Shown piece after piece: positions 5,998-15,882 of a stretch of 64,000 bases of DNA. A program made the translations under genes and the position numbers. The stretch is taken from assembly GCA_031368515.1 (NCBI GenBank), contig JANMNW010000674.1, forward strand, positions 3,969 through 67,968, read 5' to 3'. Below the pieces are notes generated by a model. It saw only the letters and a list, made by a program, of their open reading frames with translations. It ran no database searches and was not told the origin of the DNA. Source of the DNA: Chloroflexota bacterium. GTDB lineage: Bacteria > Chloroflexota > Anaerolineae > J036 > Brachytrichaceae. Position 1 is the stretch's first letter. Each line of letters begins with the position of its first letter.

Positions 5998-6312
5998 TCA
6001 GTATGCGACGAGCCGCTGCTTCAGATCTGCGCGCACGCGCTCAAACTCCGATTGAACGGCCTCCGCATGCGCCGTCAGTCCCTCCACCGCGCCCGCGCGC
6101 GCTGCCGAATCCAAATCGGCCGCATACTGCACGAGCCGTGCCGCGCCGATGAAGCGTGAGCCGGCCGCGATCTGCTGAGCAATCGTTCGCGCGGTTTCGT
6201 GATCGCGCGCGCGCGCCGATTCAGTCAGGCGCGCAATCTGCGCCGAAAGGTCATCCAAATACACGGATGCGACCGCGCCGGCTGTTTGATCCGAGCCGTT
6301 CAACGCACCCAT
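5998..6312 (-). CDS. Hpt-like four-helix protein; canonical phospho-accepting His position is Gln
   Basis: 104 aa, helical. ARTIAQQIAAGSRFIGAARL aligns with the Hpt signature A-H-x-L-K-G-S-x-x-x-x-G-A but has Q at the His position. The start overlaps the stop of the hybrid kinase by 13 nt. Confidence 0.45.
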   Translation of the reverse strand: MGALNGSDQTAGAVASVYLDDLSAQIARLTESARARDHETARTIAQQIAAGSRFIGAARLVQYAADLDSAARAGAVEGLTAHAEAVQSEFERVRADLKQRLVAY

Positions 6313-8918
6313 AGGTCGCGCCAGGCCGCCTCGTCGATCGCCGATGCTGGGGCGACGGATGTGGTCATCCAGCGCTGCACGGCTTCGGTCAGCGCTTTAA
6401 GGCGCACAGGTTTGCTAATGTAGTCGTCCATGCCCGCTTCGATGCATGCTTCACGGTCGCCCCGCATGGCATTGGCCGTCATGGCGATGATGGGCGTGCG
6501 CACGCCGCTTGGGGCCTCAAACTTGCGAATCTCGCGCGTGGCGGTGAAGCCGTCCATCTCGGGCATCTGGCAATCCATGAGCACGAGGCGATAGGCGCCG
6601 CCCGCGTGGCTGCGTTTGCGCAGCATGTCCAAAGCCTGGATGCCGTTTCCAGCCAGATCGACCGAATAGCCCATCTTCTTCAACTGCAGCGTGGTCAGGC
6701 GCTGATTGGCAGGGTTGTCCTCAACCAGCAGCACGGGCGCGCCAATGGCGATCGACGGCGCGGGCAATTCCGCTGCGGCGGGCTGAGCGGCTTCCTCTTG
6801 CGCTTCTGCCGCCGCCATCTGAAACGGCATCGCTGCCTCCGCGCGGCTGACCCTCAAATGGGCGGGCATTTGCTCAAATACAACTTCAAAGAAGAATCGC
6901 GTACCTGCGCCTGCCTGACTCTCGACGCCGATTTCGCCGCCCATCAGCTCTACCAGTTTTCGAGAAATCGCCAGCCCGAGGCCGCTGCCGCCATAGCGGC
7001 GCGTGATGCTGCCATCGGCTTGCACAAAAGGCTGGAAGAGCCGGCGCTGGGCGGACTCAGACAAGCCAATGCCTGAGTCGATCACCGCGAATCTGCAGCG
7101 CAGGCGGGTGTCTTCTGACGCCAGCACCGCAACCTCCACCCGCACCTCGCCCGAGTGCGTGAATTTGACGGCATTGCTCAGAAGATTGAGCAACACCTGC
7201 CGCAGCCGGCTTGGATCGCCCAGCACATGCGCGGGCAGATCATCCGGCAGCGTCACGGACAGCGGCAGCTGCTTCTCCTGCGCTTTGGGTTTGACGATGT
7301 TGACCGAAGCCGCCACCACGCTGGCGATATCGAATGCCACGCGCTCCATCGTCATGCGTCCGGCTTCGATCTTTGAAAAGTCCAGAATGTCGTTGATCAG
7401 CGATAGCAGCGATTGCGCGGAGACAAGCGCCACAGACGCCAACTCGCACTGCCGCTCATCAAGCGATGTCTCCAGCAACAGCTCGTTCATGCCGATGACG
7501 GCGTTCATCGGCGTGCGAATTTCATGGCTCATCATGGCCAAAAACTCGGACTTGAGGCGCGAGGCTTCAAGCGCCCGGTCGTGCGCTTCAGCCAGCCGCT
7601 GCTCCATGGCTTTGCGCTCCGTCAGATCGCGCACCACCGCCTGAAAGCCCGCGACTTCTTCGTTTTCAAGCAGCACTTGCACGTTCTGGCCCATCCACAA
7701 TTCCCGGCCGTCGCTGGTGATCACCGGGATTTCGTGGTAGGTGTTCTGGGTGCGCTTGACAAACTGCTCCGCGTATTTCCGCCGTACCGCGCCGCGCATG
7801 TCGCTGCGAATGAAGTCGACAAAGCGGCGGCCGACGAAGTCGGCTTCGCTGGTGAATCCCATGATGCGCATCGCCACCGGGTTGGCGTACGTAAACCGGC
7901 CGTCGCGATCGGTGCGATAGATCATGTCGTCGGCCGACTCGACAAAGTTGCGAAAGCGCTGTTCATTCTCGCGCAGCGCGTTTTCCGCCAGCTTGCGCTC
8001 GGTGATGTCGGTGCAAACGCCGATGACCAGATCGCCCGGCCCCTTGGCGTCGCCGATGAGCAGCCAGCGCAACGAGCCATCCTTGTGCCGCAAGGCATGC
8101 TCATGGGGGACGGGATCACTGGCAACTTCGCCGCGCGCGGCGCGCTTCACGTACTCGCGCTCTTCGGCAAGTTGCCGCGGGGTGGTTAGGCGAGGGATGC
8201 GCCACCAGCCCTCGCCCATGATTTCCTCCGGCTCGTATCCCAGAATCGCGCGCACCGATTCACTCACATACGTGATCGCGCTTGTGGAATCGGCGACGAT
8301 CACCAAGTTGGCGATCGAGCGCGTAATGTCCGCCAGCAGCGCCAGCCGGGAGTCGGCTTCGACGCGCGCAGTGACATCCTGCACCACGCCGATGGCGCCA
8401 ATGAGGCGGCCATGCTCGTCACGAATCAGTCGCCCGGTTTCGGCCAGGTGGCGCACGCGGCCATCCGGCAGAATCATGCGCGGGGCAATTTCGTATGAGG
8501 CAGCGCCGCTTTCAACAGCTTCGAACCATCGCCGCTCCCAGAGATCGCGCTCTTCGGGCGCCAGGCGCGTAAGAACCGCGTCTTGCGAAGGCGTCACCTC
8601 GCCGGGCGCGTAGCCATACAGGTGATACAGCTCGTCCGACCAGATCGTGGCATTGCTTTCGGACTCCCAGCGCCAATGGCCAAATTGGCCAATGCGCTGC
8701 GCTTCGTCCAGCAACCGTTCACGGTCCTGCAGCTCGGCCGTGCGATCACGCACGCGCCCCTCAAGATCCTCAGCCAGCTGCTGCAGCGCGGTGTTGGCGC
8801 GGTACAGCGCAAGACTCTTGCTCTCCAGAAGCATCTCGGCTTCCTTGCGCGCCTTGCGCTCGCGCTCAAGGCGGCGGTTGAGCAAGGCAATGTGCTGGTT
8901 GAGGTCGATGTCGGTCAT
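6300..8918 (-). CDS. Hybrid sensor histidine kinase (coiled coil, ~3 PAS, HisKA, HATPase_c, REC)
   Basis: H-box [21 protein letters not shown] boxes [24 protein letters not shown]. Receiver motifs [37 protein letters not shown]. The ATG at 8918 forms an ATGA overlap with the H-NOX stop, so it is preferred over the longer ORF start at 8948. Confidence 0.9.
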
Positions 8919-9466
8919 GCCGGTTGCGGCATGCGCGTCAACACCCACTCGGCATGGGTGCCATCTTCCGCGCCCGCGTCGCGCTGCAGGGTGATGTTTT
9001 CACCAAAGTGTTGGATGCACCCCATGATCAGGCCCTCGGCCACGCCGGCAAAGGGCCGGACCGAGCGGTATGTCAGGCGCGCGCCGCCGTCCGCGGCCAA
9101 GTCCACAGAAATGCGCGGCAGCTCGGCATCCGGATATAGCTTGCGCACTTCCACATGAATGTAGCCATCGATCCGTTGCAGCATGTCAAAAGCGCTGGTC
9201 ACACCCTCGAAAAATGCCGGATACAACGTGGAGAAACGGCCAAACAGATAGCGGCCAAACGCGCGGGTTAGATCGGGCAACGGCACGCCTGTCTGCGCGC
9301 TCAGCGCGACCACCATGCTGAGCATCTCGCGATGGTCGTAACTGCCGACGGCCGTGTACGCCCCGCCCGACGGCAAGTCGGACTTGGTGATGATGTCGTC
9401 GGCAACGTCAACGCCAAAGGTCTGCTCGACCATCTCGATAAATTCGGTGAAGACCATTCCTTTCAT
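8915..9466 (-). CDS. hnoX: H-NOX (heme NO/O2-binding) sensor protein
   Basis: MKGMVFTEFIEMVEQTFG N-terminus, a proximal-His candidate in IDGYIHVEVRKLYP, and the heme-propionate motif Y-x-S-x-R (LTYRSVRP). Stand-alone at 183 aa and translationally coupled to the kinase. Confidence 0.85.
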   Translation of the reverse strand: MKGMVFTEFIEMVEQTFGVDVADDIITKSDLPSGGAYTAVGSYDHREMLSMVVALSAQTGVPLPDLTRAFGRYLFGRFSTLYPAFFEGVTSAFDMLQRIDGYIHVEVRKLYPDAELPRISVDLAADGGARLTYRSVRPFAGVAEGLIMGCIQHFGENITLQRDAGAEDGTHAEWVLTRMPQPA

Positions 9467-15077: not shown

Positions 15078-15108
15078 GGTGGTAATTGTGATGGTTGATC
15101 GCTAACGT

Positions 15109-15882
15109 TCAGGCGGCTTGCGGGTAAATGCCGCGCCAGTTGTTGCGGAGAATGGTGACCATGTCCGTCAGAAAGCGGCGCGACTCTTTGACAGCATCGA
15201 CCTTTGAGCCGGGTGAATCGACCCAGGTCACCGGCACTTCAGCCACACGCCAGTCCCACTTCGCGGCCAGAAAGAGATGCTCCAAATCGAATGAAAAGCC
15301 GTTGATCGTCTGGGCTTGATACAGCTTTGCCGCCGCCGCGGCGGTGTACATCTTAAATCCGCACTGCGTGTCGCGTACGCCGATGCGCAGCACGTTTTGC
15401 ACGAGGAAGCGCAGCGTGCCGCTCATGACGCGCCTCACCAGCTTGCGATTGGATTCACCCGCGCCTTTCGCCGCACGCGAGCCCACGGCAACGTCGTAGC
15501 CTTCATCGGCCAGCTTTGCCAGCAGCCGGCTCAACTCCTCAATTGGCGTGGAGTTGTCCGCATCCGCGAACAGCCGATAGCGCCCGCGCGCGGCCAGCAT
15601 GCCGCGGCGCACCGCGCTGCCCTTGCCGCCATTGCGCTCGGCTTCGACCACGCACAAATTGGCCAGCCCCAGGCCCTTGCACAAGGCAACCGTGTCATCC
15701 TTCGAGCCATCATCGGTAATGATCAATTCCCAGTCAATGCCGAGATCGCACACATGCGACGCAATCGCGCCGATGGTCGGCACAATGCGCATCGCTTCGT
15801 TGTATGCAGGCACCACGATGGAAAGGTAAGGTTCTCCTTTCAAGGGCTGTGTTTTCCAGCTTTGATAGTTTTCGTATGACAT
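15109..15882 (-). CDS. Glycosyltransferase family 2 (polyprenyl-phosphate glycosyltransferase-like)
   Basis: LSIVVPAYNE, ITDDGSKDDT, FADADNSTP (DxD). ATG at 15882 lies within the longer ORF. Confidence 0.85.
   Translation of the reverse strand: MSYENYQSWKTQPLKGEPYLSIVVPAYNEAMRIVPTIGAIASHVCDLGIDWELIITDDGSKDDTVALCKGLGLANLCVVEAERNGGKGSAVRRGMLAARGRYRLFADADNSTPIEELSRLLAKLADEGYDVAVGSRAAKGAGESNRKLVRRVMSGTLRFLVQNVLRIGVRDTQCGFKMYTAAAAAKLYQAQTINGFSFDLEHLFLAAKWDWRVAEVPVTWVDSPGSKVDAVKESRRFLTDMVTILRNNWRGIYPQAA

Follow-up and report, generated by a model that had tools for sequence, protein, structure and literature searches.

A putative gas-responsive partner-switch operon for lipid-linked glycan synthesis and export in Chloroflexota

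We analysed a stretch of 64,000 nucleotides (the window) from a Chloroflexota bacterium, contig JANMNW010000674.1 of a metagenome-assembled genome (MAG) in 677 contigs (G000), in which eleven co-directional minus-strand open reading frames (ORFs) fill positions 5998-15882. In transcription order they encode a GT2 and a GT4 glycosyltransferase, a STAS protein (STAS-1), a SpoIIE-type PP2C phosphatase, an RsbW-like serine kinase, a second STAS protein (STAS-2), a single-domain receiver (REC), a MOP-family flippase, an H-NOX haem sensor, a hybrid histidine kinase and a degenerate Hpt domain. We judge it somewhat more probable than not that this train is one operon for gas-responsive post-translational control of a lipid-linked surface or cell-wall glycan pathway; most likely the gas signal acts at the level of proteins to start or stop the production of a surface glycan. 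Recurrence of the gene order in related genomes indicates that the conserved system is real, and comparison of the loci resolves it into two layers. The set GT2-GT4-STAS-PP2C-RsbW-STAS-REC-flippase is, from its distribution, a Chloroflexota-wide core, and the H-NOX and kinase genes are an add-on that occurs in four or more lineages, all with H-NOX proteins of a single clade. The initial annotation, made from the letters and ORF translations of the window, had described a single linked train: the linkage stands, since the order is conserved, but the train is a phylum-wide core plus a clade-specific insert and not an indivisible unit. What sets the window apart is that its switch has H-NOX and a kinase as input and that its Hpt domain is degenerate and split.

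Firstly, we assessed the integrity of the train. Every product belongs to the family that the initial annotation had named, and all eleven match Pfam models above the curated cut-offs. With start codons supported by orthologues (the GT2 start at 15882, for example, agrees with orthologues of 256-257 aa), the ten junctions measure, in transcription order, +31, +53, +41, -8, -4, +10, -16, +15, -4 and -13 nt. No gap exceeds 53 nt and the remaining junctions overlap: the RsbW-like kinase gene overlaps the PP2C gene by 8 nt, the flippase gene overlaps the REC gene by 16 nt, and ATGA overlaps join the RsbW-like kinase and STAS-2 genes (11503-06) and the H-NOX and kinase genes (8915-18). A terminator scan of the train returned 7 weak sites, where shuffled sequences lead one to expect 11 ± 4, and all 7 are intragenic; no terminator was found between genes, the place where the initial annotation had reasoned that one would separate the modules. 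A scan for sigma-70 promoters gave a single match, also intragenic; apart from showing no terminator between genes, the two scans carry no information. The train is flanked by a convergent plus-strand gene ending at 5982 and by a divergent plus-strand gene for an M4 peptidase starting at 16172. The interval between this gene and GT2 presumably holds the promoter; the sigma-70 consensus scan, which does not cover Chloroflexota promoters, gave no match in 15883-16171. We also confirmed that the train encodes no recognisable sigma factor, diguanylate cyclase or phosphodiesterase, or DNA-binding output: none of the eleven products has a Pfam match to GGDEF, EAL or HTH domains, and no sigma-70 region-2 match occurs anywhere on the 68-kb contig.

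Secondly, we inspected the partner-switch proteins residue by residue. The metal-binding aspartates of the PP2C (D298, D316, D438, D490 and D491) are invariant in 38 orthologues, and the N-box (E49..N53...H57), G1 (D89-x-G91) and G2 (G111-x-G113) motifs of the RsbW-like kinase are kept in 67-68 of 68, so by their motifs both enzymes are apparently active. The phosphorylatable residue of STAS-1, in the motif FLDSS, is Ser in 63 of 65 orthologues and Thr in the other 2, that of STAS-2, in FMDSAG, is Ser in 26/26, and the acceptor Asp of the REC is retained in 67 of 68 orthologues, with the T/S and K positions mostly kept. The N-terminal region of the PP2C, about 280 aa long, is specific to the family and has no Pfam match even at E = 10 and no sequence match in the PDB. 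In the AlphaFold2 (AF2) model (mean predicted local distance difference test, pLDDT, 88.7) this region forms two alpha/beta domains, a small one (residues 1-67) and a GAF-like one (124-219), each followed by a long helix; the second helix leads into the PP2C domain. The catalytic part is closest in fold to P. aeruginosa RssB, SiaA and Rv1364c by Foldseek; since the PP2C domain outweighed all else when the entire model was searched, the term GAF-like describes the topology of the N-terminal modules only.

We used this family-specific region as a probe and obtained 80 loci from reference genomes, nearly all of them labelled Chloroflexota (Anaerolineae, Chloroflexia, Ardenticatenaceae, Thermoflexales, Ktedonobacteraceae and others); the counts that follow come from a tblastn map of 75 Chloroflexota loci, with denominators between 56 and 72 for the genes of the core. 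The stable core is STAS-PP2C-RsbW-(STAS)-REC, with STAS upstream of PP2C in 60/70 loci, RsbW downstream of it in 63/72 and REC downstream of PP2C/RsbW in 59/64. A hybrid kinase gene follows REC in 21/57. The core lies among glycan genes: GT2 and GT4 stand upstream in 12/56 loci, as in the window and often with a MOP flippase and a pyruvyltransferase downstream, while in another 25/56 a WecG/TagA-type transferase gene fused to two STAS domains lies a few kb upstream, which makes 37/56 with one or the other. Across the Chloroflexota type A loci, identity is 61-68% for GT2 and 58-69% for GT4. Both STAS genes of the window sit between GT2/GT4 and the flippase gene, an order conserved in relatives, and the STAS-2 gene is mainly confined to loci with GT2-GT4/flippase genes.

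Gene fusions in relatives tie the switch more closely to these glycan proteins. In the first, a WecG/TagA-family glycosyltransferase carries two C-terminal STAS domains (WecG-STAS-STAS). In the second, RsbW-like domains are placed at the N terminus of flippase orthologues of other Chloroflexota and are joined directly to the first membrane helix, giving a protein of 691 aa; this architecture comprises 18 protein clusters with 35-100% identity, in operons that are otherwise identical. These fusions support the view, already put forward as the likely output in the initial annotation, that the switch acts on glycan synthesis or export, and they point to the flippase and the TagA/WecG-type transferase as its physical targets. 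The WecG-STAS-STAS protein is exemplified by L019:1392-2849 (G020) and recurs in some 25 further loci of Chloroflexota, where its gene precedes STAS-PP2C-RsbW-REC by a few kb; its first STAS domain keeps the D-S-S motif and the second reads S-S at the same place. We asked whether these domains are closer kin of STAS-1 or of STAS-2, and identities of 23-29% do not discriminate. The 691-aa fusion is found at L020:5929-8004 (G019, a Thermoflexales MAG) and also in L079, L083 and L214, and holds two HATPase_c_2 segments, the first with a degenerate N-box and the second with N and G1 and without G2. A triple REC-RsbW-like-flippase fusion (P0127) was discarded as evidence: several genes on its contig are fragmented, and faulty assembly probably accounts for the reading through from REC. 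As for the product, GT2 finds its best NCBIfam resemblances, all below cut-off, in PpgS, ArnC, PgfS and AglJ, resembling in this the polyprenyl-phosphate sugar synthases. Taken together with the flippase, and with the WecG/TagA enzymes and pyruvyltransferase that relatives encode, this resemblance suggests that the product may be a lipid-linked cell-wall or surface glycan.

Thirdly, we examined the sensor. The H-NOX protein, whose nearest PDB relative is 6ocv (E = 3e-46), is the product of the only HNOB gene in the genome. The proximal haem-ligating His104 (in YIHVEV) and the propionate-binding motif Y133-R-S135-V-R137 are present and are invariant in an alignment of its 16-sequence clade. Stable O2 binding needs a distal-pocket Tyr, Tyr140 of the Caldanaerobacter protein, and we placed the equivalent position in the window's protein by residue numbering. 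Residues 136-148 (VRPFAGVAEGLIM) include no Tyr, so that, on this numbering, sensing of O2, proposed by the initial annotation as an alternative, seems unlikely and the gas signal is probably nitric oxide (NO). The hybrid kinase gene follows in the same direction, and the kinase has an intact H-box, SHEIRTP, and an intact ATP-binding domain. At its N terminus the kinase has a helix that we also found in 48/54 ORFs located directly after H-NOX genes in unrelated metagenomic loci (L133-L212), with the consensus RRLERERxARKxAExLLExKSxELYxAN irrespective of what follows it, and that was not present in kinases of cassettes without H-NOX. From this spread, the helix seems to serve H-NOX proteins in general for docking or signalling. 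The 4-nt overlap of the two genes and this shared helix support the coupling of sensor and kinase.

The order REC-flippase-H-NOX-kinase recurs in G023 (H-NOX 60% identical), in L126 (66%) and in L130/L131 (60%), and the metagenomic contigs L120, L123 and L124 have the same gene order with H-NOX proteins 89-91% identical and the same flanking genes. The synteny that the initial annotation had wanted compared in related genomes is thus conserved in all of these. In L130/L131 the pair is inserted between the flippase and pyruvyltransferase genes and so has glycan genes on both sides. The sensor is rare: it was found in 2/40 relatives and in 1/57 Chloroflexota loci that reach far enough downstream of PP2C to be scored. 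Elsewhere in the phylum 25/401 genomes have H-NOX; these occurrences are in other families, with lower scores and in other contexts, and we do not count them as the same system. A Chloroflexota homologue 61% identical to the window's H-NOX (P0010) also lies in another gene context. All six cassette H-NOX proteins fall in the single clade of 16 (support 100/97), consistent with a single acquisition. The kinase core of G023 shares 41-50% identity with kinases that follow REC in cassettes without H-NOX, and 34% with a foreign H-NOX kinase. On the simplest interpretation, kinases of a family already resident in the cassette gained an H-NOX partner in one clade.

REC-PP2C fusions are encoded beside other H-NOX/kinase pairs. 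On the metagenome contig L133 (1416-5745) a REC-PP2C fusion is encoded directly upstream of the pair. On a second metagenome contig, L161 (6222-11898), the pair stands beside a divergent operon for REC-PP2C, STAS, a sugar nucleotidyltransferase and an RsbW-like kinase. Wiring of REC to PP2C is supported by these arrangements.

We then analysed the Hpt-like ORF, which the initial annotation had regarded as a gene of its own supplying the Hpt step of the relay. Neither part of this claim was supported. In close relatives (about 84-85% identical) the kinase is a single ORF of 976-980 aa, and the window differs from them by a deletion of 1 nt (window GCGCGACCT-ATGGG; L123 and L124 GCGCGATTTAATGGG). 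The kinase frame ends 13 nt past the deletion and the Hpt-like part restarts at a conserved Met; the "Hpt-like protein" is therefore, by this alignment, the C-terminal domain of the hybrid kinase. A separate eleventh ORF is seen in the assembly of the window only, and the split may be a real deletion or an assembly error. The domain is predicted by AF2 as a four-helix bundle (pLDDT 87.6), with P. aeruginosa HptB (7c1i) as its best fold match (template modelling score, TM, 0.83; root-mean-square deviation 1.4 Å). In an alignment with four canonical Hpt domains, those of L126, L130, L133 (an unrelated H-NOX kinase) and the stand-alone Hpt encoded elsewhere in the genome, its Gln46 takes the place of their phospho-accepting His and Ala-Ala that of Lys-Gly. 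The four read A-H-[ST]-[IL]-K-G here, the window and L123 A-Q-Q-I-A-A-G. His38 was considered as the true acceptor and ruled out, as it is Ala in close relatives (L123). The ratio of nonsynonymous to synonymous substitutions (dN/dS) of the domain relative to L123 is 0.32, and that of neighbouring genes 0.07-0.15; the degenerate domain is still under constraint. The only canonical Hpt of the G000 genome is a stand-alone protein of about 134 aa on another contig (C644:1181-1669, minus strand; L128) with the motif AHTIKGGASTIGA; its gene adjoins an OsmC-like gene on a contig of 2.6 kb, and the protein is 31-33% identical to the degenerate domain of the kinase.

From these elements we propose a pathway of five steps. 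NO would bind the haem of H-NOX and thereby change autophosphorylation of the kinase; in characterised H-NOX/kinase pairs, NO inhibits kinase autophosphorylation. The phosphoryl group would then move from the kinase to the stand-alone REC. In relatives whose kinase ends in a canonical Hpt (L126, L130) the phosphate would pass via that domain, while in the genus of the window, where the His is lost, it would be transferred directly from HisKA or via the stand-alone Hpt of C644. In the third step the REC would control how active the PP2C is, by way of the sensor-like domains and long helices at the N terminus of the phosphatase, and in the fourth the PP2C and the RsbW-like kinase would set the phosphorylation state of STAS-1 and STAS-2. 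Finally, unphosphorylated STAS, or the kinase that STAS releases, would bind the flippase, the glycosyltransferases or both and so gate synthesis or export. Steps three to five are, on the distribution described above, a module of the whole phylum, to which the H-NOX/kinase input was added in one clade.

Several observations weigh against this pathway, most of them on its second step; transfer of phosphate to the stand-alone REC is its weakest part. As a rule, a hybrid kinase passes phosphate on to a second receiver by way of an Hpt. In the window's Hpt-like domain the H-x-x-K-G motif with its phospho-accepting His is lost, so the kinase's own Hpt cannot accept phosphate. In the syntenic G023 the kinase has no Hpt at all, most cassette kinases end at their REC domain, and Pfam detects no Hpt in the whole genomes of G023 (91% complete) and G019 (99% complete); among the 80 Chloroflexota loci, tblastn found no counterpart of the window's Hpt. 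The output and the input have points of their own: by Pfam, the flippase, GT2 and GT4 of the window carry no fused STAS or RsbW-like domain, so the target of the switch is read from relatives only; 20 sigma-70 region-2 matches occur elsewhere in the genome, on other contigs; and the preference for NO over O2 depends on residue numbering. Lastly, neither a PP2C orthologue nor H-NOX was found in four reference genomes of the same genus (G001-G004, 77-92% complete), while near-identical cassettes exist in metagenomes, implying that the cassette is accessory within the genus. The cassettes of G023 and G019 both encode hybrid kinases together with stand-alone receivers. Directly after the G023 kinase gene lies a clean intrinsic terminator, GCCGCATTTTAAATGTGGCG followed by T7 (L005:60-160, minus strand), which marks the end of the operon at the place taken in the window by the Hpt-like ORF.

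In a sharper version of the proposal, which we consider possible though doubtful, the MOP flippase itself is what the switch acts on: STAS-2 in its unphosphorylated state would dock there, or on the RsbW-like domain that many relatives have fused to the flippase, and gate export of the lipid-linked glycan. The Hpt without His, unable to take phosphate, would bind receivers and in this way shape or insulate the flow of phosphate from the H-NOX kinase. Were this true, it would be the first gas sensor wired to glycan export through serine phosphorylation, and docking of STAS-2 on the flippase would give SypA-like STAS proteins a concrete class of target.

Three other explanations depart further from the operon reading. 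The H-NOX/kinase pair may be an insert of two genes in its own right, whose signal goes to a response regulator elsewhere, leaving the REC and the switch to another kinase or to the PP2C's own sensor-like domains. In favour of this, such pairs are mobile units of two genes that turn up in many contexts, most cassettes do without H-NOX, two sensor-like domains make up the N-terminal part of the PP2C, and the Hpt that would carry phosphate from kinase to receiver is degenerate in the window and missing in G023. We nevertheless find this explanation unlikely. The pair keeps its place after REC and flippase in at least four lineages in which H-NOX identity is 60-66%, and in L130 it lies inside the glycan operon; the G023 kinase core is most like kinases directly after REC in cassettes without H-NOX; no other receiver or output domain is encoded nearby; and REC-PP2C fusions accompany H-NOX/kinase pairs elsewhere.

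Equally improbable in our estimate is that the REC is a phosphate sink or competitor and not an activator of the PP2C, that the Hpt-like domain is a functionless, decaying remnant and that the split ORF is an assembly error. The dN/dS of the domain, two to four times that of its neighbours, favours decay, as does its dispensability in G023, and the split occurs only in the assembly of the window, a MAG of many contigs. However, at 0.32 the dN/dS stays far under 1, AF2 models the fold with confidence and it matches HptB, and the Gln at the His position is common to relatives at about 84% DNA identity, which means that the His was not lost recently. The deletion lies outside long homopolymers, with an in-frame ATG exactly at the break, and the REC is kept in most loci, as counted above, and fused to the PP2C in independent systems.

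The least probable explanation is a classical partner switch, in which the RsbW-like protein would be the anti-sigma factor for a sigma factor encoded elsewhere and the glycan genes its regulon or mere neighbours: STAS, RsbW and PP2C do form the canonical triad and match anti-sigma-antagonist and RsbW models, and other contigs hold the 20 sigma-70 region-2 matches, but the 68-kb contig has no sigma factor, a sigma-like gene lies in the flanks (within about 10 kb) in only 3/80 related loci and is never both co-directional and directly adjacent to the module, throughout the phylum the module sits between glycan genes, relatives carry STAS domains on a glycosyltransferase and RsbW-like domains on the flippase, and sigma-independent precedents are published.

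We retain the reading of the train as a gas-responsive operon acting on glycan proteins, with H-NOX as the input in one clade, so that a circuit from signal to output would be encoded in about 10 kb. Many Chloroflexota are filamentous organisms of activated sludge and sediments. The pathway could be reconstituted in vitro from ten proteins and offers a testable hypothesis for SypA-like proteins, and the degenerate but constrained Hpt poses the puzzle of how hybrid kinases reach stand-alone receivers without a working Hpt.

The features of the train are collected in Table 1. The divergent neighbour (window 16172-18787, plus strand) encodes a thermolysin-type M4 peptidase of 871 aa with an InhA-like MAM domain and a Thr/Pro-rich tail, and the same neighbour is found in the close relative L120. 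An Rfam scan of positions 5000-17000 gave a single chance match, to a eukaryotic internal ribosome entry site, and nothing else.

Table 1. Features of the train and its upstream region, in transcription order (window coordinates)
Feature	Position	Strand	Basis
Divergent intergenic region upstream of the GT2 gene, presumed promoter region	15883-16171	-	Between GT2 start 15882 and M4 peptidase start 16172
GT2 glycosyltransferase, 257 aa	15109-15882	-	PF00535, 101.8 bits
GT4 glycosyltransferase, 404 aa	13863-15077	-	PF00534 (72.1 bits) and PF13692
STAS-1, anti-sigma-antagonist-like, 112 aa	13471-13809	-	PF01740, 62.1 bits; TIGR00377, 79.9 bits (above cut-off)
SpoIIE-type PP2C phosphatase, 501 aa	11924-13429	-	PF07228, 162.4 bits
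RsbW-like serine kinase, 142 aa	11503-11931	-	HATPase_c_2 PF13581, 78.6 bits
STAS-2, 116 aa	11156-11506	-	PF01740, 64.8 bits
Single-domain receiver (REC), 121 aa	10780-11145	-	PF00072, 95.2 bits
MOP-family (Wzx-like) polysaccharide flippase, 437 aa	9482-10795	-	Polysacc_synt_3 PF13440, 37.6 bits (cut-off 23)
Stand-alone H-NOX haem sensor, 183 aa	8915-9466	-	HNOB PF07700, 133.7 bits (cut-off 25.5)
Soluble hybrid histidine kinase, 872 aa	6300-8918	-	Pfam: three PAS, HisKA (76.8 bits), HATPase_c (99.8 bits), REC
1-nt deletion relative to close relatives, splitting the kinase from the Hpt-like domain	6310-6314 (between 6313 and 6312)	-	BLASTN against L123 and L124
Degenerate Hpt domain, 104 aa as a separate ORF	5998-6312	-	PF01627, 27.3 bits (cut-off 24.6)

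We compared the train with known systems. In the RsbK-RsbY-RsbV-RsbW-SigB system of Bacillus cereus, a hybrid kinase controls a receiver-linked PP2C, the REC-PP2C fusion RsbY, that acts on STAS and RsbW; the target there is the sigma factor SigB, whereas the window has no linked sigma factor. The initial annotation had taken the HptB-HsbR-HsbA route of P. aeruginosa as its model. The relay logic is shared, in that a hybrid-kinase/Hpt relay feeds, or in the window would feed, REC, PP2C and kinase activities that act on a STAS protein, and the window's Hpt-like fold is nearest to HptB, yet without the His. It is a looser analogue than the two systems taken up last, from Vibrio fischeri and Anabaena: HsbR joins REC, PP2C and kinase in a single protein, the His of HptB is functional, and the route, whose outputs are FlgM and a diguanylate cyclase, is not known to involve H-NOX or glycan genes in cis.

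The HnoX-HnoK pairs of Shewanella oneidensis and Vibrio cholerae share with the window a stand-alone H-NOX gene directly coupled to a histidine kinase gene (PMC8738867, PMC12329717). The known outputs of H-NOX/kinase pairs are cyclic di-GMP enzymes, quorum-sensing relays or transcription factors, whereas the only candidate output in cis in the window is the partner switch within a glycan operon. Our literature search found no link of H-NOX to a STAS/PP2C module and no description of H-NOX kinases in Chloroflexi.

A sigma-independent partner switch acting directly on a polysaccharide enzyme was shown experimentally only in 2026, in a cyanobacterium (PMC13555669). In Anabaena sp. PCC 7120, the PP2C HenR (REC-PP2C) and the RsbW-type kinase Alr3423 switch the STAS-glycosyltransferase All4160 (PMC13555669, 2026). 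As in the window, PP2C, RsbW-type kinase and STAS are linked to polysaccharide enzymes and not to a sigma factor, and a receiver governs the phosphatase, as we propose for the window. In Anabaena, STAS is fused to a Bac_transf enzyme and REC to PP2C, and the genes lie scattered, with a sensor kinase yet to be identified; in the window, in contrast, STAS and REC are free-standing and all genes lie in one operon with an identified sensor. The Chloroflexota relatives differ again in having STAS on a WecG/TagA-type transferase, of another family than the Bac_transf of All4160, and RsbW-like domains on the flippase. The authors of the Anabaena study saw regulation of STAS-glycosyltransferases as largely cyanobacterial (PMC13555669); our distribution suggests that partner-switch control of glycan enzymes is phylum-wide in Chloroflexota and not lineage-specific to cyanobacteria.

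In Vibrio fischeri, NO and HnoX control HahK, which signals through the Hpt of SypF (or through LuxU) to SypE. The substrate that SypE phosphorylates is SypA, a STAS protein that controls Syp polysaccharide at a level below transcription and whose target is still unknown (PMC12369376, PMC8256260). Both systems encode an NO-binding-type H-NOX with a hybrid kinase, both have a receiver-controlled serine kinase/phosphatase acting on STAS (predicted for the window), and in both the STAS protein belongs to a polysaccharide locus and acts, in the window by prediction, below transcription and without a sigma-factor target. The differences lie in the packaging: the hnoX-hahK operon is separate from syp, while the window has a single operon; SypE is one RsbW-like kinase-REC-PP2C polypeptide, where the window has three separate genes; SypG, a sigma-54 regulator, belongs to the Vibrio pathway, as does an Hpt that works (SypF or LuxU), and the train has no DNA-binding regulator and an Hpt without His; the window has two STAS proteins, unlike Syp, and the phylum differs. 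By these comparisons, the closest functional analogue of the window's train is the V. fischeri HnoX-HahK/SypE/SypA pathway, and its closest mechanistic precedent is Anabaena HenR/Alr3423/All4160.

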